IMG/VR virus record: IMGVR_UViG_3300029787_000028
Span: 1 to 64,000 of that record
From: an uncultured virus (IMG/VR IMGVR_UViG_3300029787_000028)
Lineage: Duplodnaviria; Heunggongvirae; Uroviricota; Caudoviricetes; Crassvirales
Length of the DNA: 64,000 nucleotides
Reading direction: 5' to 3' (one strand)
Of this stretch, positions 2,172-59,341 are shown piece after piece. The first letter of the stretch is position 1. Every line of letters starts with the position of its first letter. The notes under the pieces are model-generated. The model was not told the origin of the DNA. It made no database searches and saw nothing but the letters and a program-made list of their open reading frames with translations. The translations under genes and the position numbers were made by a program.

Positions 2172-2651
2172 GTGAAGCTGTCAAAAAATTTATCACTGTC
2201 AGAAGTGACCAAAAGCACTACGGCTAAACGCCTAGGCATAGACAATACACCAGATGAGTGGGTTACAGAGAATCTTAAAAAGGTTGCAGAGCATATTTTT
2301 CAACCTGTGCGCGAGCATTTCAAGTGTCCTATATTCGTTTCGAGCGGCTATCGCTCAGCGGAACTCAACAAGGCGATTGGCGGTTCAAAGCGTAGTCAGC
2401 ATGTGGAGGGTAGAGCATTCGATCTTGACGCAGACGTATTTGGACGTGTGTCGAACAGTAGCATATTCAACCACATACGAGAGAATCTACAGTTTGATCA
2501 GCTCATTTGGGAGTTTGGTGATGAAGACAATCCTGATTGGGTGCACGTGTCTTACGTTTACGATGGCGTTAATCGTGGCAGGTGCCTCAAAGCTCTACGA
2601 GATGATAAGGGGAAGGTCTACTACGAAGTAATGTTTGGTAAATCCCTCTAA
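2172..2651 (+). CDS. Peptidase M15A-type endolysin
   Basis: SGYRS..LNKAIGG..SQH.EGRAFD and WVHVS zinc-ligand motifs. Confidence 0.88.
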   Translation: MKLSKNLSLSEVTKSTTAKRLGIDNTPDEWVTENLKKVAEHIFQPVREHFKCPIFVSSGYRSAELNKAIGGSKRSQHVEGRAFDLDADVFGRVSNSSIFNHIRENLQFDQLIWEFGDEDNPDWVHVSYVYDGVNRGRCLKALRDDKGKVYYEVMFGKSL

Positions 2652-18365: not shown

Positions 18366-18671
18366 ATGCCTACGGTAAAAAGGAAAGGAAAGATGCCCAA
18401 GAAGTTCTCCGTTAAGAGCGGGGACAAGTCTGCATCTGGAGGATTGACAGCCAAGGGCGTTAAAAGATACAGAGCTGCAAACCCTGGCAGCAAACTAAAA
18501 ACTGCTGTAACCACCAAGCCATCAAAGCTTAAGGCAGGTAGTAAGTCAGCTAAGCGCCGCAAATCTTTTTGCGCTAGAATGAAGGGGATGAAGAAGAGAC
18601 TTACCAGTGCAAAGACTGCAAGAGATCCAAACTCACGCATCAACAAGGCACTCAGAAAGTGGAATTGCTAA
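18366..18671 (+). CDS. Basic phage protein (DUF6321-like)
   Basis: GGLTAKGVKRYRAANPGSKLK...RRKSFCARM...ALRKWNC. Confidence 0.7.
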   Translation: MPTVKRKGKMPKKFSVKSGDKSASGGLTAKGVKRYRAANPGSKLKTAVTTKPSKLKAGSKSAKRRKSFCARMKGMKKRLTSAKTARDPNSRINKALRKWNC

Positions 18672-18862
18672 TGAATGCTGTAAAGAAAAATAAAGGAGGT
18701 AAGCTGTCAGTTAGCAATAAAAAAGTTTCTGTCTCTCCCCCATCTGGATATCACTGGATGGAAGATAGAGGTCGATACTTTCTCATGAAGGGCGAATACA
18801 AGCCACATCCTGGGGCTGTCGCAAAAGCTGAGTTCAAACTTGTAAATCATCCAAAGTCATGA
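18671..18862 (+). CDS. Small basic protein
   Basis: ATG 18671; PPSGYHWM...LMKGEYKPH. Confidence 0.65.
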   Translation: MNAVKKNKGGKLSVSNKKVSVSPPSGYHWMEDRGRYFLMKGEYKPHPGAVAKAEFKLVNHPKS

Positions 18863-36535: not shown

Positions 36536-37714
36536 ATGGCGTACCAGAAAGAAAGAAAATATGGTAATGGTGGAACGGCTGCTACTGCGGCTGAATTAAA
36601 TCTGCAGTCCCTTGGTGTGTCCGCTGGCGGCTCAGCGTTTGGTGGTCTTGCTGGTTTGTTTGGAACAGGTCCAAAAGCTCAACAAGAGTTTATTGATGCC
36701 GCTGGTGTAGCCAGAGACGACATACAGGCTTTCTACGACAAGGCAGGCAGTGGTGGCTACGACCTTGACCTGACCCTTGATCCCGCTTACAATCAGCTGT
36801 ATGAGATGTCCAGAACAAGGACGTCTGCAGACCCGCTGTTGAGACAGGGGGCCACAGCAGTTGATGCTCTGCAGCAGGGAGGAGAGAGAAGTTTGTTGGC
36901 TGGGATAAACCCTACAACCAGAGCTATGGCGCAGGGAGAGCTCAACCTTGGGTTAACAGATCAGCAGAGGGAGATAGCTGGACTTCAAGCCCTGGGTGGC
37001 GCAAGACAAAATCTTTCCACTCAAGAAGCATTGAGCAACAATGCTTTTACAAGGCAGCTTGGATTGAATCAATTGCAGCAAGCTCAAGCGTCTGAAGCCA
37101 CTGCTTTGCAGAATGTGCAAGACATGAAGATGGCTCGTCAAAATGCTCTTGGTCAGTTTGCTGGGGGTCTTGGCTCCCTTGCAACATTGGGGCTGATGGC
37201 TGAACACGGAACAAAAATACCTAAATACATGATGGGCGGTAAATACGAAGATGGGGGCGAGATGAACCCTGGGCTCAAGAAGTTGAAAGAAAATCACCCA
37301 GATGTTTTTGAAAAGATCACTGGCAAAGAGGCGGAGCATGGGATGAAATATCCAGGCGGTGGCATGATGCAATACCAGATGGGGGGTGAGGTGCTTGCTC
37401 AGATCATGGGTGCCAAAGGAGGACAGCCTCCAGTTCAGGGACCACTGCCTGGTGAGCCATCCCACTCAACAAATCCTATCGACATGATCGACAAGGAGGG
37501 TAATAAGGTTGGTGAGGCTATGGGTGGTGAGTTTATCATCAGCGACATCCAAGCAGAAGAGATGATGCAACCATACATGGCTGTCAAAAAAGCCATAGAG
37601 GACGAGGAGAGAGAGCCAACAATGGAAGAACTCATGGACATGTACAAGTCAGTTGATCAAGTGTTAGGACAGCCTCAGTTCCAAGATGAGGGGGCTGCAA
37701 TGCAAATGACATGA
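36536..37714 (+). CDS. Internal virion (ejection) protein 1
   Basis: G/A/Q-rich with hydrophobic Gly-rich segments; repeated KYxxGG motifs; after tail genes. Confidence 0.6.
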   Translation: MAYQKERKYGNGGTAATAAELNLQSLGVSAGGSAFGGLAGLFGTGPKAQQEFIDAAGVARDDIQAFYDKAGSGGYDLDLTLDPAYNQLYEMSRTRTSADPLLRQGATAVDALQQGGERSLLAGINPTTRAMAQGELNLGLTDQQREIAGLQALGGARQNLSTQEALSNNAFTRQLGLNQLQQAQASEATALQNVQDMKMARQNALGQFAGGLGSLATLGLMAEHGTKIPKYMMGGKYEDGGEMNPGLKKLKENHPDVFEKITGKEAEHGMKYPGGGMMQYQMGGEVLAQIMGAKGGQPPVQGPLPGEPSHSTNPIDMIDKEGNKVGEAMGGEFIISDIQAEEMMQPYMAVKKAIEDEEREPTMEELMDMYKSVDQVLGQPQFQDEGAAMQMT

Positions 37715-42300: not shown

Positions 42301-44932
42301 AGATGCACCAGCTGGGTCTCCTGAGAGCATGAAGGCACGCCAAGAGTTGATTGAAAAGATTCAAAGAAACAAAGGGGCGTACTTGACGCAGTCTTACGAG
42401 CTGTTCATGGATGGTGGCAAGAGACTTGACCTGCTCTTGGGGCACAAAAAGGACATGCCAGCCAACATCAGAAAGGCATACGACGATGCTGTTGAGTTTA
42501 TTGCAGATCAGTTTGACAACGACATCACCTCAGATACGCCCCTCACAAGGCAACAAAGGTTGCAGCTTGCTGACCAAAAGCTTGGGCAATACCTGCAAAG
42601 GCTGAAGGGGGGCAAAGAGGGGACATCGTTTGGTATCCTTGGGGCCATTGACGCACCATTCCTGAGAGCTAAGAAGAATGATTTGGCACAGCCAATTCAG
42701 CAGTTGTTGGGCAAGATTCAAGACCCAATGAATGCTTACTTGACCACCACATCTAAGCTCAACTCTTACCTGGCAAACACAAGATGGCAAACAGAGTTGT
42801 CCATGGTTCTAAAAGAGTCTGGGATCAGTCGTCTTGGACAGGAGTTCTCTGGTATGACTTCAGACATGGGGCGCATGGTGCCCTTGGTTCCTGACGGTGA
42901 CCGTTGGCTGCCACTTACTCAAACCTTTGTGCCTGAAGGATTTAAGACAGCCTTTGATAACTTGATGCCCCTGAAGAGCATTGACAACGACATCATGAAG
43001 TTTGCCGTTTCAGTGACCTCAGCTGTCAAGGTTGGTAAGACTGTCTTCTCTCCCACCACCACATCAAGAAACCTGGTGAGTGGTACGTTCCTGGCTATGG
43101 CGAACGGGCACCTCCCTGTCAACCCAGCCAACCTTGGAAAGACCATGGATGCTGTCACGCAAGCGTGGGGTGCCAGTGCAAAGCGAGGAATCAAAGGCAA
43201 AGGTAAGTATGCTGACTCTGTATGGAGGGCAGAAAGAAAGAAACTCATCGAGATGGGTATTCTTAATGACGGTGCCAACTCTGGTGAACTCATGGCCTTT
43301 ATCAACGACAGCATGGGTGGTGATATCAAAAGGATTCTGAAAGGCAAAGGGAGGACAGGTATCAAAGACTTCTCTCAGAAGCTGTACGCATTTGGTGACG
43401 ACTTCTATAAGGTCAATGGATACTATCAAGAGCGAAAAGCTTTTGTTGACTCTGGTATGTCCGTGGCTGAGGCAGAAGCCCAAGCAGCAGCTCGTGTAAG
43501 AGGGGGCTACCCCACATACAGCTACATCTCAAAGGGTGCAAAGCAGTTGAGAAGGTTCCCTGCCGCTGGTTCGTTTGTCTCGTTCCCTTACGAGATGTAC
43601 AGAACTACGGCCAATCAATTCAGATTTATGGCTGAAGACTACCAAGCAGGTAGAACAGGCATGGCTATGAGAAGGGCTATGGGCTTGTTGACGTCTGGTG
43701 TAACAGGCTATGCTCTGTCTGAGTACAGCATGGACAAGCTTGGCATGACGGACCAGGAAGATCAAGCGATCAGAGCCCTTGGTCCTGGATGGCAGAAGCT
43801 GTCTCAGCTGGTGTACTTAGGGACTGAAGACGGTTCACCCATGTTCATGGATGCGTCTTACGCCTTGCCCCACGAGGTGGTCATGAAACCAATAAGAGCT
43901 TTGTTTGGATCTAATCCAGACGATAAAGACCTGATGGACAACATGATGACCGCTGTTGGCGAAGTGGTGAAGCCTTTCATTGATCAAGATGTTACAACAC
44001 GCTTTGTCAGTGGCCTTGTAGGAAACAGAAATGAGAACGGTCGAGAAATCATCAGCCTGTCGCCAACTGAAAAGAAGCAAGGATTTGGAGGGCTCTTTTC
44101 AGCATGCATGGATGACAGCGCGAGAGGCACTAGAAACTGTTACAACGTGCTTGCTCACTTCATCAAAGGTGCAGCACCTGGTGTCGCCATCAACGCTGCT
44201 GAATTTTTGAGAGCTGGAGCGATAGAAGAAACGTATGAACTTTTGAAAGGTGAGGAGTTGCCCAACGGTCACCCACTTGAAGAAGCCCAGGATGCGTTCC
44301 AGGATTACTTCCCTCAGAAAACCAGCTACAAAGAGTACACCATTAGGGATGCGGTGTATGCTTTCTTTGGAGCTCGTGTCAGCTACATGCCCCTTGATGT
44401 AGCAGGGGCAAACTCAATCAGAGAGTGGGACTCACATGCCCAAGACGAGATGAATGAAGTGTGGCATCTGACCATGCCACAGCCTGAGCTGACCATGCCT
44501 GGGGAGATTGATGAGAGGGCAGCAGAGTACATCTACCAAAACAACGAGGCGCAGAACAATATCCAAAGAACAGTGGATCTAGTTACAACACTGGACATGG
44601 AGTTAAAGGATATCGTCAAGATGTTGGATCGAGGGGGTATACCAGAAAAGGAGATGGGCTTCTACCTAACAGACAGATATGTATTCCCTCCCTTGATCTC
44701 TCAAGAACAAGTACAAAACCACATAGAGTCGCAGACCTGGACAAAGGGAATAACCACAGAGGAGAGAATAGAAATAATCAAGGCTGGGTGGAGAAACGCA
44801 GGGCAGTTCAACAGAGCTGTAGCAAACGGATATAAAGAAACACTGAGGGACGCAGGTCTTTCTGAATCAGAGATTGAAAACAAACTAAAAGAAATGAGAG
44901 ATGGCCTTGGAGAAACAAACTACGAAGATTAA
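39350..44932 (+). CDS. Large internal virion (ejection) protein 3
   Basis: 1860 aa, mostly helical; YPTYS...FVSFPYEMYRT; third of an ascending-size trio. Confidence 0.6.
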   Translation: MEEEELLKLYEQYSQSGFSQNKAFRLMTGAGYDTPEARTYMASLYTDGPKKKSQDASQAVSSTEEVSTESTSATPQVQQPESGDLDSPVTSFDLAIEDLFPGGLNVAPAQADGPPNRYRATAGGAYRINPTPLANAEQDYELDRILRSMGADTFHQFAMASARPVQALGQQGADELYKGFLPEGLLGDIIRPGEATVNRYGEVLDRLAMAYVLDERTQKAVEGGMDMERALLENKDWMKKFVKFSEDDFTDRGPNPYNIGMKRDLFNREMKKVEKEVDAKRRELEVDYVNNYYGKSFVDALPVEYNEKIEDPEGKQVLTNASRSKLASLEKQFKRRTGYAIDFSGDNKVGNRPLFQVKPGFRGTIKFEGEAVDKLTNSSVSVLDGMTYLLSRLGGGMLGATETYTDENGNVVNVGELMMSEVDLHLKRSEEEMQELNEKMNEYQLNVSSSLANGDFASAMEQSFLMTAESAPYLAPMLLTKKLGITGSAAMSTFLGLGVEANLIKEDKTFDTFVKDGKKYNYYEAAKEAGTYDMTELEKQFEIETDYFKRWGFLGSVAAADFGVNLSLNRALMGSYKKGMKLEAESWFKGWAYGQRTALGESAMATATSMFIRNCDEALKGGNIDFEQAASDAIEMTISTAPLTMLLHTAGSAARSIRGTAATPQTVPLNAEEMGALNRQVLEYQRKVSKSRDPRFIAEANQFILNNRRKVADLRQGNVDYLTYLHEKDPSAFLEVSNASLTLERLKLNYKNTNDPNLKLQYKENATALLSRLDEIYGSNKAEFEKFQGTIRGVREREEERADPNQVGGPRTRQQDQRVLDELTTPQQRTDTDLIPIKPEPDPTLSPYAKMNDRMAGLRRIGQKAREKFNQFFRSSGGIGNKNIEEVVRSKQRLDSGWIDEVQFDARLWRQLLKQVRRPEGLAGRKRSKAEMQVTQEAMYDVLTGKAKMEDARLMDLTPQQKDQLQYFRSHVDSLSSQLIKTLQDAPAGSPESMKARQELIEKIQRNKGAYLTQSYELFMDGGKRLDLLLGHKKDMPANIRKAYDDAVEFIADQFDNDITSDTPLTRQQRLQLADQKLGQYLQRLKGGKEGTSFGILGAIDAPFLRAKKNDLAQPIQQLLGKIQDPMNAYLTTTSKLNSYLANTRWQTELSMVLKESGISRLGQEFSGMTSDMGRMVPLVPDGDRWLPLTQTFVPEGFKTAFDNLMPLKSIDNDIMKFAVSVTSAVKVGKTVFSPTTTSRNLVSGTFLAMANGHLPVNPANLGKTMDAVTQAWGASAKRGIKGKGKYADSVWRAERKKLIEMGILNDGANSGELMAFINDSMGGDIKRILKGKGRTGIKDFSQKLYAFGDDFYKVNGYYQERKAFVDSGMSVAEAEAQAAARVRGGYPTYSYISKGAKQLRRFPAAGSFVSFPYEMYRTTANQFRFMAEDYQAGRTGMAMRRAMGLLTSGVTGYALSEYSMDKLGMTDQEDQAIRALGPGWQKLSQLVYLGTEDGSPMFMDASYALPHEVVMKPIRALFGSNPDDKDLMDNMMTAVGEVVKPFIDQDVTTRFVSGLVGNRNENGREIISLSPTEKKQGFGGLFSACMDDSARGTRNCYNVLAHFIKGAAPGVAINAAEFLRAGAIEETYELLKGEELPNGHPLEEAQDAFQDYFPQKTSYKEYTIRDAVYAFFGARVSYMPLDVAGANSIREWDSHAQDEMNEVWHLTMPQPELTMPGEIDERAAEYIYQNNEAQNNIQRTVDLVTTLDMELKDIVKMLDRGGIPEKEMGFYLTDRYVFPPLISQEQVQNHIESQTWTKGITTEERIEIIKAGWRNAGQFNRAVANGYKETLRDAGLSESEIENKLKEMRDGLGETNYED

Positions 44933-45347
44933 AGACACAGGCTTGGGCAAGTGGCTCAAGTCAAAAGCACCTAATGTGCTCAATGTTGTTGGGGACTTGC
45001 TGCCAGACAGCGGCGGTCTTGGTATTGTAAAAAATCTTATTGATAAAGATCCTGATGTCAACACTGACGAAGGTGTGGCTGCTGTCGATGCAGAGATTCA
45101 GTTCCAGAACAACGTGACTGAAAGATGGAAGGCTGATATGGGCAGCGATGTCAAGCTGGCTAAGCTTATCAGACCAGTCACTTTGATCGCATTGATGAGC
45201 ATGTTTATGGTGACTATGTTTATAGACAGCATGGACAACGTCGCATTTAACGTCAAGGATTCTTATGTAGATTTGTTGCAGGTTTTAATGCTAACAGCAT
45301 TTGGTGCATACTTTGCTGGTCGCACCATAGAAAAGGCAAAAAAGTAA
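44901..45347 (+). CDS. Holin (GTA-type 3TM holin-like)
   Basis: RWKADM.SD..LAKLIRP, two hydrophobic helices, GAYFAGRTIEK. Confidence 0.75.
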   Translation: MALEKQTTKIKDTGLGKWLKSKAPNVLNVVGDLLPDSGGLGIVKNLIDKDPDVNTDEGVAAVDAEIQFQNNVTERWKADMGSDVKLAKLIRPVTLIALMSMFMVTMFIDSMDNVAFNVKDSYVDLLQVLMLTAFGAYFAGRTIEKAKK

Positions 45348-45350
45348 GTC

Positions 45351-46175
45351 ATGAAAGTCAGGTATGAACATGGTGGTGAGCACGATCCAATCAAGCAGAT
45401 CTTAGCAAATCAGTTGGCGGCTGACAGGGCAGACCTTGGCTTTTCTGCAAGCCCCTCAATGCAGTTGTATGGGTTTGAAGATGGGCCCGTCAACATGAGA
45501 CCAGACTTGCTCTTAGATGTTTTGGGTGGGCCTGCAACGGTTAAGGCAGGTGTCCAGGGCATCAGACAACTCATGAAAAAAAGCCCAGAGCTTTACAAAA
45601 AGTTGATGGGATCTGGAACTAAAGTAGTAGATGATGCTGCAAAGCAGGGTGGATTTGATCCCACAGATATTGCTGCTTTGAGGAAAGATGGGGTTTCTGA
45701 AGAAGAGATCATGAAGCTTGTGAAGGGCCCCCAAACAAAGATGACAAAGAAAACTGCTGACAACACTCAGGCTTACATAGAGCGCATGAAGAAGCAGAAG
45801 GTTCAGAATCAAGCCAACAGAGCTCTAAGAGAAGCGGCACGGGACGAATCTCAGCAATTCATAAATATGCAAAGAAGACTTAGCGAACTTGGGATGGAGG
45901 CTGCGGAAGCAGAAAAGATTGCACAAAAAATCTTCAAAGAAAACGTAGATGACATCTTTACTCAGGCAAGAATAGATGACATGGTGCTTGGTAAGGGTGA
46001 TCAACTGGCGAAACAGCTTGGACCCACTATGCAGGAGCTGTACAAAACAAACAGGGGTGTGTTCGATGCCATTTATAATGAGCTCATCCAGCCTGTTACA
46101 TCTAAAAAAATAAGCGGCGCGGTGAACCCACGCATGAATCAGTTTGGTGGCAAGATAAATGTGAGAAAGGCATGA
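45351..46175 (+). CDS. Hypothetical protein, possibly head-internal
   Basis: RYEHGG at N-terminus and NQFGGKI at C-terminus. Confidence 0.55.
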   Translation: MKVRYEHGGEHDPIKQILANQLAADRADLGFSASPSMQLYGFEDGPVNMRPDLLLDVLGGPATVKAGVQGIRQLMKKSPELYKKLMGSGTKVVDDAAKQGGFDPTDIAALRKDGVSEEEIMKLVKGPQTKMTKKTADNTQAYIERMKKQKVQNQANRALREAARDESQQFINMQRRLSELGMEAAEAEKIAQKIFKENVDDIFTQARIDDMVLGKGDQLAKQLGPTMQELYKTNRGVFDAIYNELIQPVTSKKISGAVNPRMNQFGGKINVRKA

Positions 46176-48313
46176 GGTGTTTGTTGTTTATGCTTCTCCC
46201 TTTGTTTGCTACTGCTCAGACAGGGTGGGTCTCTATCTCTATACAGGGTGATGCATACGGCAACGAAACCACATGGCTACTTCGTGATTCCAGCGACGCA
46301 ATTGTTGCAGGATCTGCACCCCTGCAGGGGGAGTATCCCTATGTTGAGGCTTTTCTTCCTCTGCCTGTAGGTGATTACACCTTTACTATCTACGACTCTT
46401 TTGGTGATGGCATTTGCTGTGACTTTGGTGAGGGTTGGTTCTCAATCAACACTTGCGTCTTAGACACCACGGTGTACGACTTCAACGCCTCAGAGCAAAC
46501 CATTCCGTTTGAGGTGCTGGCATGCCCCCCACCAATCTTTGGATGCATGCAGCAGGGAGCTCTGAACTACCATCCCTGGGCAACCGCCCCTGCACCCTGC
46601 GACTTCCCTCCTGTACAATGCGAAGAAGGATACAACAACATCCTTGTCACAGTTACGCCTGATACTTATGCAGCTGAGATCAGCTGGGATCTAATCACAA
46701 TCCCAGATGGTGAGGTCATTGCAGAGGGGTCAGGCTATTCTATTGTAGGGGCTCCCATTGTAGAGGCTGTATGTCTGCCCATTAGTTCAGAGTTCAAGGT
46801 AAACGTGTACGACACATTTGGTGACGGCATGTGTGGTAGCTGCTATGGCGGAGTGGATGGCAACCTACTTGTTTCCAACCTATGTGGAGAGACACTGTAC
46901 TACGTAGGCGACACCACACAGTACGAAGTAGTGTCAAGTGATACTATCGTGATCGACCCATGCTTCCCGCCCATACCTCAGGGATGCACAGACTCGTGGT
47001 TTACAGAGTATGACCCTGGTGCTGTTATCGACGACGGTAGCTGCCAGACAGAAGTGATATTGGGATGCACTGATCCTCAAGCAATTAACTTCAACGAGGA
47101 TGCCAACACACTAGAGACAGAGAACAACTGTGACTTTACTCTGACACTTACAGACGGCGCAGGCGATGGATGGTTTGGCAGCTGGATTGGCGTGCAGCAA
47201 GGTGACGAGATCTGGGGGCCTCTTACGATGCATCCTAACGATGAGTTTGAGAAAGAGATTCAGATTCCCCTTTACTCTGGAGAGGCAGTCAGGGTCATGT
47301 TCTTTACGCAGGGCAACGCTGAGACAACAGCTTCACAGTGTGGTTTCTACTTCGATGGACCCAACGGTGTATTCATGGAAGGCGGAACCAACCCATGGTC
47401 AGACGCCATCAAAAAGTTTCCGTTCAAGTACGATGGTGTGCCTGTGTGCGGAGACTTCTGCGAGCCTGCTATCATGGGCTGCACGCTTAGCTTCGCCTGC
47501 GACTACAACCCTGAAGCAAACGTTGACGGTGACTGCACGTTTCCTATCGAGTACTATGGATGCGACAACGAGTGCATCAACGATGCTGACGGCGATGGAG
47601 TCTGTGATGAGCTGGAGGTCGAGGGGTGTCAGGACTCAGAGGCATACAACTACAACGAGGATGCCACTGATCCAGCTGATTGTGAGGACGTTGTGTTTGG
47701 GTGTACAGATCCCATCATGTTTAACTACAATGAGGAGGCGAACACTGAGAACAACAGCTGCGTGCCGTTCATCTACGGATGTACGATCCCTGAGGCACTG
47801 AACTACGACCCTACTGCCAACACCAACAACGGTAGCTGCGAGCTACCCATGCCTGGGTGTATGGACCCTGACGCTGCCAACTACAACGTGTACGCCAACG
47901 TACCTGCGAACGAGGACTGCCTGTATGATGCGGGGTGCATCACTGGTCCTGGCGAACCATACTGGGCCAACGACTACTGCTACTCGTGGGTGATTGAGGT
48001 TGATCCCTACTGCTGTGAGGTAGGATGGGATGCCGTTTGCATTGAGATGCACGAGTACTGCAGCCAGGGTGTAACCAATGTCGAGGCTCTGGGCTACAAC
48101 TCAATTCAGATATGGCCCAACCCAACATCTGGTGTGCTCAACTTCCAGGCCCCCGCAGAAGCATTTGCAGACGTTTACAGCCACTCTGGGCAGCTTCTGA
48201 TGTCATGGCAAGGAGATAGAGAGATAGACCTTACATCGCTGCCTAACGGCTTGTATGAGATTGTCATCAACTACAAGGGCAGAATTAGGGTTGAAAGAAT
48301 CGTGAAGCAATGA
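46172..48313 (+). CDS. Secreted Cys-rich repeat protein with T9SS type-A C-terminal sorting domain
   Basis: Signal peptide ending ATA-Q; eight GC..A.NY-type repeats; C-terminus IWPNPTSG...IDLTSLPNGLYEIVI..RIVKQ. Confidence 0.85.
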   Translation: MRCLLFMLLPLFATAQTGWVSISIQGDAYGNETTWLLRDSSDAIVAGSAPLQGEYPYVEAFLPLPVGDYTFTIYDSFGDGICCDFGEGWFSINTCVLDTTVYDFNASEQTIPFEVLACPPPIFGCMQQGALNYHPWATAPAPCDFPPVQCEEGYNNILVTVTPDTYAAEISWDLITIPDGEVIAEGSGYSIVGAPIVEAVCLPISSEFKVNVYDTFGDGMCGSCYGGVDGNLLVSNLCGETLYYVGDTTQYEVVSSDTIVIDPCFPPIPQGCTDSWFTEYDPGAVIDDGSCQTEVILGCTDPQAINFNEDANTLETENNCDFTLTLTDGAGDGWFGSWIGVQQGDEIWGPLTMHPNDEFEKEIQIPLYSGEAVRVMFFTQGNAETTASQCGFYFDGPNGVFMEGGTNPWSDAIKKFPFKYDGVPVCGDFCEPAIMGCTLSFACDYNPEANVDGDCTFPIEYYGCDNECINDADGDGVCDELEVEGCQDSEAYNYNEDATDPADCEDVVFGCTDPIMFNYNEEANTENNSCVPFIYGCTIPEALNYDPTANTNNGSCELPMPGCMDPDAANYNVYANVPANEDCLYDAGCITGPGEPYWANDYCYSWVIEVDPYCCEVGWDAVCIEMHEYCSQGVTNVEALGYNSIQIWPNPTSGVLNFQAPAEAFADVYSHSGQLLMSWQGDREIDLTSLPNGLYEIVINYKGRIRVERIVKQ

Positions 48314-49344
48314 GATACCTCGCAACCACATTGCTGTTGTTGATCACCTTCAACGTGTCAGCACAGGCAGTAAAGAAAGCATTTAAGTTTGCCACCTTCT
48401 ACACCGCCTTCAGTGGTGGTAACTCCCTGTCAGACAGAGAGGTCTTTTCTGTGGCCAACGGCTTGCAAACTGACATTGTAGAAACTCCGTTTGACTTTGC
48501 CCTTACTGCAGGCGTTCGCAAGATCGCACGCTTTGGATACGAGAACAGAGCCAACACATTCTACAACGGAACAGAGAAGTCTTACGGAGACGCCGCCACC
48601 ATTGGTAAGGTGAGTGGCTTTGAGTTCTTGTTCGAGGGAGACTACAGGAGACAGCAAGGGGTCAACTACCTAGACCAAGACTACTTCCTTAGGTATGTGG
48701 CTGACAAGTGGATCACCAAGGTGGAGTTCCTGCAGGATGGATTCGCTGACGTCAGGTACTTCGAGGCATCCCAGAGAGCCAGGGTCAAGCTTGGTAAGCT
48801 GTCCCTCAACGCTGGAATCATGCAGAGATTGTCAGAACCCTATGGTTACGATCCTTTGAACGAGTGGTTGCTAGACAACAATCAACTTCATTTTACTTCA
48901 CTCGCTCTGCAAGAGGGATACGATATTGATGTGAACACAGGTGAGTTCTTCAGCCCTGATGGGACACTCGTTGCTAGTAGCTACGAGGTGTGGGAGGAAG
49001 TTGTTATCCCCCAGGCGCTCGAAGATTACGTGAGCAAGAAGCGTGGAGAACTGGACAATCAATGGGTTCATTCTGTGGTGGTTGGCTTTGACTACTATCA
49101 CTTCACCAAGAACTTTTGGGTGCATAGCTGGGCCAACCTGATCCCCTACCACCTAGACACAGATGGAGAGTACTCGTATCATAGGTTTGTTAACAGCGGG
49201 CAGTGGATAGACTACTCTGGGGGTCTTATATTTGGTAAGAGGTTCAATAAAAGTTTTGGTGTATTCGCAGAGGGTAAGTATCATAAGTACTGGGACAGGT
49301 CATGGCACGACTTCTCTCTGGGAATCAACTATGTAATAATTTGA
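48310..49344 (+). CDS. Putative outer-membrane beta-barrel protein
   Basis: Signal peptide ending VSA-Q; aromatic-rich amphipathic strands; ends FSLGINYVII. Confidence 0.65.
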   Translation: MRYLATTLLLLITFNVSAQAVKKAFKFATFYTAFSGGNSLSDREVFSVANGLQTDIVETPFDFALTAGVRKIARFGYENRANTFYNGTEKSYGDAATIGKVSGFEFLFEGDYRRQQGVNYLDQDYFLRYVADKWITKVEFLQDGFADVRYFEASQRARVKLGKLSLNAGIMQRLSEPYGYDPLNEWLLDNNQLHFTSLALQEGYDIDVNTGEFFSPDGTLVASSYEVWEEVVIPQALEDYVSKKRGELDNQWVHSVVVGFDYYHFTKNFWVHSWANLIPYHLDTDGEYSYHRFVNSGQWIDYSGGLIFGKRFNKSFGVFAEGKYHKYWDRSWHDFSLGINYVII

Positions 49345-49345
49345 T

Positions 49346-49630
49346 ATGGCTCAGCAGATAGGGGAGGATACGAAGATCACACTAGACCTAAAGACCATAG
49401 GTATGGCAGCCGCAGGGATTGGCACAATCGTAGCCATGTGGTTCGCCCTGCAAGCAGACATCGCAGAGGCAAAGGAACTGCCTGTCCCCCCATCTCCAGA
49501 TATCACGCGCATGGAGTTTGACATGAAGGATCAGCTAGTCCGTCAGACAATCATGAGTACACAAGAGGATATCACTGAGATAAAAGAAGACATTAAGCGT
49601 ATCGAAGAAAAAATAGATCAACTCAGATGA
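49346..49630 (+). CDS. Single-TM protein with C-terminal coiled coil
   Basis: IGMAAAGIGTIVAMWFAL; EDITEIKEDIKRIEEKIDQL. Confidence 0.7.
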   Translation: MAQQIGEDTKITLDLKTIGMAAAGIGTIVAMWFALQADIAEAKELPVPPSPDITRMEFDMKDQLVRQTIMSTQEDITEIKEDIKRIEEKIDQLR

Positions 49631-49633
49631 CCT

Positions 49634-49996
49634 ATGAAAGCTTTAGCCACCTGCATACTAATCTTACTTTTTTCCGCCGCAACATACGTTTCTGTACCTG
49701 CAGAGGATGAAGTTTGTGAATCAGGTATTTGCGTAGTAGAGTTTAACGCGAGCTTCAATGCTCAAAACAGTGTAGAATGGATCGAAAGCCTCAGCGACTG
49801 CGTCACAAACCGTGTAGACATTGCCTCTGCACCAAGCCTTCAGCAGGAGCACAAGATTGTGGTAGTACCCACGATCGTTGTATTCAACGAGGGAGAGGAG
49901 GTGAAGAGATTTCAGGCGAACATCATGATGACGATGGAGGCCAGCAAGGATGACGTACAGGGGGCCATCGACGAAATATTGATGAGCGACTTCTAA
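49634..49996 (+). CDS. Exported thioredoxin-fold protein lacking CxxC
   Basis: Signal peptide; VVEFNASFN where WCxxC is expected; VVPTIVVFNEGEEVKRF cis-Pro strand. Confidence 0.7.
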   Translation: MKALATCILILLFSAATYVSVPAEDEVCESGICVVEFNASFNAQNSVEWIESLSDCVTNRVDIASAPSLQQEHKIVVVPTIVVFNEGEEVKRFQANIMMTMEASKDDVQGAIDEILMSDF

Positions 49997-49997
49997 C

Positions 49998-50501
49998 TCA
50001 GTATTTTTTATCGTACTCCCAAACTCTGTATGACACCAGAGTCTTGATGTCGTGAAGCTTGAGAAGAGAGATGACGTCTTTCTTCCCCTCCCTTGTGTAT
50101 CTCTTTAGGTAGGCGTTCTTGTACTTGGTAACTGCCTCGTCAGAGACGTGCTTCTCGCAAAAGAATGCCAGCTCTTGCCTGTCTACTATGACAAACCCCC
50201 CTTCTTCTGGCATGTCGAACGCGATGATGGTGGCACCACCGTATAACCAACCTTTGTTCCCTCTCACGTTTGTAAACTCACACCAGATTTGATCTGGAAG
50301 GTTGTTGCCCTTGACATCGACACCCCACCGCTTGCCTGCTGGCGACATAGCCAACCAGTAGTCGATATGCTCATGCATATCCTCCGTGTGACTGGACTTG
50401 GTGACCAACAGCCCCTTGTGTCTGGCTGCCCTGAGAAACCTTATCTCTGCGACCCTGCCAGTGCTTGACTGATACTCACTGCGACTTGGCTTGATGTTCA
50501 T
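49998..50501 (-). CDS. Putative PD-(D/E)XK nuclease-fold protein
   Basis: GRVAE...HIDYW...VDVKG...WCEFTN..G.KGWLYG. Confidence 0.55.
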   Translation of the reverse strand: MNIKPSRSEYQSSTGRVAEIRFLRAARHKGLLVTKSSHTEDMHEHIDYWLAMSPAGKRWGVDVKGNNLPDQIWCEFTNVRGNKGWLYGGATIIAFDMPEEGGFVIVDRQELAFFCEKHVSDEAVTKYKNAYLKRYTREGKKDVISLLKLHDIKTLVSYRVWEYDKKY

Positions 50502-58911: not shown

Positions 58912-59341
58912 TCTTTTTTTTCTTCAATGGTGGGATGGTCACGAAGTGAATGTTGTGCTTCTTGAGTGCCTTCTCTTGCATCTGTGCAAGCTCCTTCACG
59001 AGGTTGAATTGTGTGTTGTCGTTGCTCATGTCAAATCAAATGCTGTGCCTTTGAAGGCGTTTTCGAGGATGCGTTTGTTGTTGCCGTCTGCATGATACCA
59101 TGTGTCGATGAGTCGATACATGAATCCACCGCAGGTCTTTTGGCGTTGCTCTAATTTTTCGCTCTGTGTCATGATTGTGGTGTGATGTTGAATGAACGGA
59201 CTTCGTAGAATTTTTGGTACCCATCCTTGTAGTTGTCCAACTGCCTCTGTGCTTGCTCTTTCTTCTCGAAGAAGGTGTGAGAGCCAAAGATTGCGTCAGA
59301 TGCAGGGTTGCCTGTGGTGACGTGTGATACTGCGTATAATG

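Follow-up and report, generated by a model that had tools for sequence, protein, structure and literature searches.

A barrel, coiled-coil and thioredoxin-fold gene trio of marine Bacteroidota phages: a candidate outer-membrane lysis device with a lineage-specific secreted cargo

Described systems and the locus

Disruption of the outer membrane has been identified as a required step of phage lysis, and in one paper 91 of 677 phage genomes are reported to be without identifiable spanins (10.1101/515445). A trio of genes that bears on how such phages breach the outer membrane is described here from an uncultured virus assigned to Crassvirales (IMG/VR record IMGVR_UViG_3300029787_000028, 65,137 bases in total), of which bases 1–64,000, hereafter the window, were analysed as one stretch of that one record. 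The trio encodes a predicted outer-membrane β-barrel (B), a single-pass inner-membrane protein with a coiled coil (C) and an exported thioredoxin-fold protein (D), and is preceded by the gene for a cargo protein (A) of the T9SS (type IX secretion system). The reading favoured here, to which a probability of about 0.45 is given, is that B, C and D form a late-expressed, three-part, envelope-spanning outer-membrane lysis device that replaces the spanin, with A as an add-on.

The λ Rz/Rz1 pair, the unimolecular gp11 of T1 and the φKT disruptin gp28 are likewise late genes beside those for holin and endolysin (10.1101/515445). Set against two-component spanins, C resembles an inner-membrane spanin in its one transmembrane (TM) helix and periplasmic coiled coil, and B would stand as the outer-membrane partner, whereas the trio differs in having a 12-stranded barrel in place of a lipoprotein, an extra soluble thioredoxin-fold subunit and a C protein much shorter than Rz. 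The trio has no family match among spanins and is without their lipoprotein subunit, yet may work like one.

Phage-encoded T9SS cargo is already known. Cryophage encodes an endoglucanase, a GH39 protein and a PA14 protein as type A cargo (Bellas et al. 2020, PMC7468147); in the accessible part of that paper these resemble A in combining a signal peptide with a type A C-terminal domain (CTD), in varying among related phages and in their presumed use of the host T9SS, and differ in that A is Cys-rich, built of repeats, without a named enzyme domain and tied to a phage barrel, no barrel, coiled-coil or thioredoxin partner being mentioned there. An adjacent cognate barrel is, in the accessible parts of two further sources, a feature of type B cargo, type A cargo using PorV (PMC12618676; PMC9143113); the dedicated adjacent barrels invoked by a first-pass annotation of the window, made from the sequence alone, thus hold for type B cargo and not for type A. 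As those sources describe them in part, the SprB–SprF and PorE–PorP–PG1035 systems share with the present locus a barrel gene directly after the cargo gene, a partner in the periplasm and possibly non-covalent surface anchoring, and differ from A–B in that A bears a type A CTD, B is without a PorP/SprF match, and the barrel is mostly cargo-less and restricted to phages. Should the link between A and its barrel hold, a type A cargo would be paired with its own phage barrel, contrary to the PorV-only rule.

Spanins are mentioned in the accessible text of papers on flavobacterial and crAss-like phages and the trio is not (PMC8776804, PMC10136315), and a literature search, mostly of non-subscription papers, returned no description of the B–C–D trio or of the A cassette. 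The statement of the first-pass annotation that no characterised phage system is like this one stands for the trio, whose architecture matches no described system in the searches made, and falls for the cargo, since a phage type A T9SS cargo has been published, as its accessible part describes (PMC7468147). New are the tie, at the level of clades and with three swap cases, between A and one barrel type, the fusion of an MshEN motif to C, and the comparison with cultured relatives that are without the trio. Ocean viral data contain the trio in abundance; the collection searched includes no cultured phage that carries it, and no family has been named for it. With its three genes it is a candidate that lends itself to direct testing, for phages of flavobacteria that degrade blooms.

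Co-inheritance of the trio and its cargo

Relatives of B fall into 3318 clusters at 90% identity, and D was found in at least 420 viral stretches. A B pattern scan of 185,579 prokaryote genomes gave a single match, on a 43,296-base viral contig in a Flavobacteriales metagenome-assembled genome (MAG), and a deep B profile matched one of 401 genomes of that MAG's phylum, on the same contig; against 50,697 deposited phage records B and C had no match and D only a weak thioredoxin match. The searches for loci started from B, from D, from three distant members of the B family and from a B motif favouring divergent members, and the listings are minimum figures in which clade sizes are not population frequencies. 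Among the matches listed, 236 loci with a full-length B were reduced to 134 at below 90% identity, the window included, and divided into a near clade (B at least 50% identical to that of the window, n = 68) and a far clade (29–37%, n = 66); loci flanked by 4 kb or more at each end are termed well-flanked (47 near, 34 far). Both C and D lie near B in 128/134 representative loci; of the 81 well-flanked ones 80 have them there, the exception carrying D elsewhere in its record. The three genes stay together over a barrel identity range of 29–100%, with C directly before D in 114/119. The gene order recurs in phages and B lies in no host chromosome searched, in agreement with the phage-encoded set that had first been proposed.

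The distribution of A follows the barrel. In the near clade A, C and D are all present in 64/68 loci (well-flanked: A 47/47, C and D 46/47); in the far clade C and D are present in 64/66, the other two ending at contig edges, and in 34/34 well-flanked loci, and the test for A was passed by 0/66 and 0/34, respectively. Among whole records, hand-chosen for length and not including locus L184, TIGR04183 exceeds its cut-off in 17/18 of the near clade and 0/32 of the far clade, 19 of the latter being at least 90% complete. In a FastTree of 53 B proteins, for which the tool warns of long branches, the A-bearing barrels form one clade (support 100, stem 0.76), and the presence of A requires one change on the B tree as against three on the C+D tree (at least two forced), because in L118, L129 and L135, where A is absent, C and D are like those of the window and B is of the old type. 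The extracellular loops of B have medians of 24/28/15/19 in the near clade and 34/34/26/30 in the far clade. Loop data, trees and co-occurrence therefore indicate that A goes with one remodelled barrel type and C–D with either: B–C–D is the older core, and A tracks the barrel clade rather than C and D. A lies directly upstream of B in 57/65 loci, the gene orders being ABCD (52), BCDA (6), AABCD (3), CDAB (3), BCD (3) and AB (1); tandem pairs of A-type cargos before B, each with its own CTD, occur in L097, L107, L109 and L094. Replacement by A of a DxDxDG calcium loop of far-clade barrels was considered and dropped, the loop being found in 6/55 far and 1/65 near barrels.

Secreted proteins of other kinds have also been observed at these loci. 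A phage protein of 642 aa, combining a cohesin-like domain with a CTD of type A, lies 4.2 kb upstream of the far-clade trio of L184 (3634–5562). Secreted Cys-rich proteins resembling LDL-receptor class A (LDLa) and ending in a short tail directly follow far-clade B, as in L175 (9859–10608), with others in L216, L249, L234, L219, L231, L211, L223, L178 and L213, and in L228 and L243 proteins encoded after D have similar short tails. TIGR04183 matched 0/10 LDLa-like proteins and the hhalign probability of the short tail was 18.5%; the tail resembles the short CTDs of Bacteroidales and may be another T9SS signal. T9SS type B domains lie on the opposite strand right after D in L156 (10363–11910, minus strand) and L093 (10330–11130, minus strand), with TIGR04131 scores of 35.5 and 36.3 bits against a cut-off of 35.

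A protein predicted for each envelope layer

B (344 aa; 48310–49344, plus strand) is predicted from an AlphaFold2 model and an alignment to be a 12-stranded outer-membrane β-barrel; 12 barrel strands were counted in the model (pLDDT 72, pTM 0.66), and all 12 alternate in hydropathy, being amphipathic in the alignment. Conserved residues of the polar face are R70, E105, R128, K137, R156, R158, R173, D261, H272, D301 and E321, and the lumen is charged and highly conserved across very different phages. A long conserved turn (residues 72–102; 48523–48615, plus strand) is a candidate plug or docking site: it measures 29–34 aa in both clades, retains R74, Y77, G87 and E89 without variation, has low pLDDT, and would, to judge from strand parity in the model, face the periplasm. 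Gln19 is conserved in at least 90% of 120 sequences; this and the model agree with the Gln-rule signal peptide and barrel-like strands first noticed in this protein. Fold searches ranked generic barrels of the outer membrane highest (EstA, Z 10.9; CymA, 10.7; NanC, 10.3; Tsx, 10.3), PorV being absent from the matches listed. With NanC/KdgM, EstA, Tsx and FapF, B shares the general barrel fold (Z about 9–11, rmsd 4–6) and a charged lumen, at 5–12% identity and with no match standing out, whereas B has a large helical surface insertion in loop 4 and the long conserved turn; on the model, a function common to B and these 12-stranded barrels cannot be claimed. Searches for B found no Pfam (E 0.1), NCBIfam or PHROG family, no PorP/SprF match in Pfam among 26 relatives (E 1) and no match to sequences of the PDB; its ESM Atlas neighbours are viral clusters without names, and BFVD gave a single strong match, to a viral protein without a name.

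C (94 aa; 49346–49630, plus strand) is a predicted single-pass inner-membrane protein with a TM helix near residues 17–35, a Pro-rich linker and a C-terminal coiled coil, in which a Pro-rich/RMEFDMKD segment is conserved; the cytoplasmic tail spans about 16 residues in most members and the periplasmic part about 58. No spanin family was matched in Pfam, PHROG or the Atlas, where neighbours of C gave DUF-type leads only. Six variants (L169:11099–11776, L170, L171, L173, L174:12948–13634 and L252:6852–7478) carry an N-terminal MshEN c-di-GMP motif and a poly-Pro linker, an extension that C of the window is without; the assignment is drawn from NF053729 (6/6, best 52 bits, cut-off 38), 5HTL (E 2.4e-4) and a tandem MshE-type motif, and, one further case apart, the fusions all come from large phages closely related to each other. 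Because MshEN is fused to the N-terminus in these relatives, C would be oriented N-in/C-out, the coiled coil lying on the periplasmic side, and the fusion suggests that a C-containing module can be regulated. A second, divergent C-like gene (KWPRGEMGALP motif) has been observed near the trio in L176, L239, L240, L250 and L243.

D (120 aa; 49634–49996, plus strand) is a predicted exported protein of the thioredoxin fold, whose family profile matches thioredoxins (E 7.5e-11) and points to descent from them; cis-Pro79 is invariant in 120 sequences and the C-terminal Phe is conserved. The site of the thioredoxin WCGPC motif (residues 41–45; 49754–49768, plus strand) reads F-N-A-Q-N, both Cys being replaced by Asn (NxxN for CxxC), and CxxC occurs in 1/119 relatives; compared with thioredoxin and Dsb oxidoreductases, D has the fold and the cis-Pro and is without CxxC, as had been recognised at the outset. 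D of the window begins with a hydrophobic N-terminus and is without Gln at +1; the signal peptides of A, B and D were judged by inspection of sequence.

Lysis genes, spanins and a candidate lysis device

Recurrent neighbours of the trio include endolysins (M15, amidase and phrog_33083) together with two families of holins. Counted from the module edge, 104 lysis genes fall in the first kb (42.4 per 100 kb) and 21 in the second (9.2), with at most 1.8 per 100 kb past 2 kb; a holin or endolysin gene lies within 1 kb in 59/94 loci (near 29/51, far 30/43), in orders such as C-D-B-endolysin-holin and amidase-A-B-C-D-holin. This association, strong though not general, had escaped the first-pass annotation. 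In the window a holin gene (44901–45347, plus strand; phrog_3427, E 1.2e-21) belongs to the same late arm as A–D. Three cultured relatives by terminase that are without the trio (elemoF, φ38:1 and φ46:3, from a collection with no B or C match) all carry, close to the endolysin gene, what reads from sequence like a spanin: these unannotated genes (L306:20392–20937, elemoF gp32, with no Pfam family; L308:19185–19784, φ38:1 gp084; L309:17247–17799, φ46:3 gp090/gp091) combine a membrane anchor or lipobox at the N-terminus with C-terminal membrane strands or a helix. A crude sequence filter flagged no spanin-like gene in seven trio genomes, that of the window among them, and no lipoprotein in the window genome.

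The lysis-device reading is preferred because the trio supplies one protein per envelope layer, keeps a constant partnership, is found among lysis genes and occurs in genomes with an apparent lack of spanins. The inner membrane would be the anchor of C, whose coiled coil would reach into the periplasm, and B would be inserted in the outer membrane; D, redox-dead, would keep its peptide-binding groove and bridge the Pro-rich/RMEFDMKD segment of C and the periplasmic turn of B, and after the action of holin and endolysin the linked complex could pull the membranes together or open the outer membrane. Mutual-information covariation among B, C and D (120 paired rows, Neff 83) gave a clade signal only, with no inter-chain pair standing out. 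A would be a later add-on of one lineage, exported through Sec and through the T9SS of the host (SprA/PorV). At the cell surface, the extracellular face of the barrel clade that goes with A, remodelled as it is, probably retains or recognises it, and A may serve as a variable, host-like coat or sensor.

Several observations weigh against this reading. The periplasmic part of C, at about 58 residues, compares with 153 aa for the whole of λ Rz; a conserved charged lumen and large variable surface loops in B would be needless for a mere anchor; and no spanin is known to use a β-barrel or a soluble adaptor. No recognised lysis gene lies within 1 kb in 35/94 loci, several cassettes apparently lie between portal and capsid genes, and in the window the holin gene alone is close, the M15 peptidase endolysin (2172–2651, plus strand; PF08291, 70.6 bits) being 44 kb from A–D in this contig; the lysis families counted were, moreover, drawn from these same neighbourhoods. 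The spanin filter considered ATG starts only, overlooked known members (C in two genomes, D in one), and covered three genomes only to base 59,000, and lipoprotein-like neighbours in several trio loci (clusters 38, 52, 54 and 79) could be outer-membrane spanin subunits. There is no outer-membrane lipoprotein in the trio itself, lipobox-like matches among 119 sequences numbering 5 for B, 0 for C and 1 for D. As for the place of A, its link to B amounts to one origin on the B tree, and the adjacency of the two genes means that physical linkage can explain part of it; the TIGR04183 protein of L184 fell below the threshold of the A test, and small secreted proteins with a short CTD-like tail occur in 12/66 far loci (5/34 well-flanked).

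The conserved charged lumen and conserved turn of B speak for an unlikely alternative, in which the trio is a trans-envelope relay that times lysis: the loops of B, or bound A, would sense an outside cue (a superinfecting phage, ions or a small ligand), and D would act on C to hold or release the holin. The antiholin RI and holin T of T4, which act in lysis inhibition, provide an analogue. Such a relay would share the co-occurrence and lysis-gene neighbourhood already described, the MshEN fusion in six relatives implies that C can take regulatory input, and variable secreted proteins (A, LDLa-like proteins, lipoproteins) recur at the locus; on the other hand, the cytoplasmic tail of C is only some 16 residues long in most members, the MshEN fusion is of narrow distribution, and the trio genomes would be left without any spanin candidate. 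An extension of the lysis-device reading, in which one regulated lysis machine shared by very different marine Bacteroidota phages receives c-di-GMP input inside through MshEN in one lineage and, in another, input outside from a T9SS-secreted, host-like protein docked on the remodelled barrel, is regarded as rather doubtful.

Protein A and alternative roles at the cell surface

A (713 aa; 46172–48313, plus strand) is identified by its ORF, TIGR04183 and CTD fold as an acidic, Cys-rich T9SS type A cargo, with 40 Cys and 112 Asp and Glu as against 14 Lys and Arg. A predicted Sec signal peptide (46172–46216, plus strand), whose hydrophobic N-terminus stops before Gln16, a residue invariant in 66 aligned relatives, is followed by three β-sandwich modules with D..GDG motifs (at 75, 214 and 328), eight GC[TMQ] repeats, a DPYCC module (at 611) and the CTD; a fourth motif, of DxDxDG type, lies at 471. 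This architecture is that given in the first-pass annotation, except that its full repeat pattern is narrower than claimed: there are eight repeat starts, and A.N[YF] fits 5/8. The predicted type A sorting domain (residues 644–713; 48101–48310, plus strand) matches TIGR04183 in an NCBIfam search (29.2 bits, cut-off 23, residues 647–713), with PF18962 under its Pfam cut-off (24.8 bits, cut-off 27) and no match to the type B CTD (TIGR04131), TIGR04183 being the sole NCBIfam match. The modelled domain, a seven-stranded Ig-like sandwich, superposes on the solved T9SS CTD 8glk_D (Z 9.6, rmsd 2.0, 70 residues) and also matches the CTDs of FspA, mirolase, RemZ, RemA and RgpB (Z 8.6–9.1). No enzyme domain in A was named by any search made, and the fold-search lists were filled by CTD matches, the N-terminal modules being barely probed.

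With A identified as T9SS cargo and B as a barrel, and A tied to one barrel clade, part of the display cassette originally proposed stands: in that scheme B would be the cognate shuttle or anchor of A, D would assist the folding of A, and C would anchor the whole. A and near-clade B are never apart in well-flanked loci, are swapped together and are adjacent in most cases, some far loci have other secreted proteins beside B, and PorE–PorP–PG1035 gives a precedent, in the accessible account of it, for a periplasmic protein, a barrel and a cargo in one complex (PMC9143113). The scheme is nevertheless distinctly unlikely as a whole: the trio is kept without detectable cargo in 29/34 well-flanked far loci, short-tail proteins counted, the use of PorV rather than a cognate barrel is described for type A CTDs in the available part of PMC12618676, D is without redox cysteines, and the clustering with lysis genes would go unexplained.

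Relatives of A vary in length from 411 to 1222 aa, and A-type repeats are common in chromosomal proteins of marine Flavobacteriales (48/61 genomes); SprA is present in 54 of these 61 genomes, which are of the family of the MAG that contains the related viral contig. A host-like character of this kind, together with the late-arm position, would suit receptor masking or protection of progeny, B produced late (with A as a coat) hiding phage receptors from superinfection and from adsorption to debris. Llp of T5 is a precedent for receptor blocking. Superinfection exclusion has also been proposed for phage T9SS cargo in the accessible part of Bellas et al. (PMC7468147). Masking is, however, improbable: it needs neither an inner-membrane protein nor a periplasmic adaptor, yet C–D is the tightest-linked pair, and receptor-specific blockers should diverge with their hosts, whereas the lumen of B is conserved across very different phages.

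The repeat region of A has a weak match (E 4e-4, 8% of the query) to a protein of Synechococcus phage S-CAM3 that has a virion-structural annotation, and annotated virion proteins of φ46:3 have signal-peptide-like N-termini. On these grounds A could be a virion accessory (a fibre or decoration) exported for disulfide formation and joining particles at lysis, with the trio staging it; this is very improbable, as the type A CTD sends proteins to the cell surface or medium, according to the accessible part of PMC12618676, the trio persists without A, and the S-CAM3 match is short and weak.

Genome context and assembly

Matched genes of the window encode a terminase (phrog_6681), a portal (phrog_6547), GroES, virion proteins and a primase/helicase, together with a crAss-type muzzle domain. 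Among cultured phages the terminase is closest to those of Flavobacterium Elemovirus (41%), Maribacter phage Panino (40%) and Cellulophaga phages (35–37%), and the window is therefore assigned to a Bacteroidota podophage. A–D are four tightly packed plus-strand ORFs, just past the holin region as the first-pass annotation had it, that close the plus-strand arm: A and B overlap by 4 nt, the B–C and C–D gaps are 1 and 3 nt, and a convergent ORF ends at 49998. Promoters showed no excess over shuffled sequence (6 observed, 7.2 expected), and no RNA data sets were among the listed holders of the stretch, which was recovered in marine metagenome runs of several studies.

Assembled contigs from runs of four studies cover 30/30 bins of the stretch, and those listed bridge holin to A, A to B, C to D and D to primase, none spanning the whole stretch or the B–C joint. 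Chimeric assembly, including a join with host DNA as raised in the initial reading, was ruled out by this bridging of joints and by the same gene order among phage genes in relatives; an origin as a host island was ruled out by the recurrence of the order within phage genes and the lack of B in any host chromosome searched.

In φ46:3, gp079–gp083 (L309:6344–14946), with annotations of virion structural protein, tail fibre or pectate lyase, have signal-peptide-like starts ending before Gln. A run of N at about 1330–1345 lies inside the ORF 1133–1453, which there translates as XXXX. Between the holin gene and A stands a single 274-aa ORF (45351–46175), and one read contig joins 45313 to 46265, indicating a strain without this gene. 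The 274-aa ORF has a short, basic N-terminal motif ending in Gly-Gly (for example YEHGG, KDGG, GNGG) in common with otherwise unrelated ORFs at 1453–1851, 36536–37714 and 18671–18862 of the window and at 64318–65136 of the genome; the motif is possibly a capsid-loading tag.

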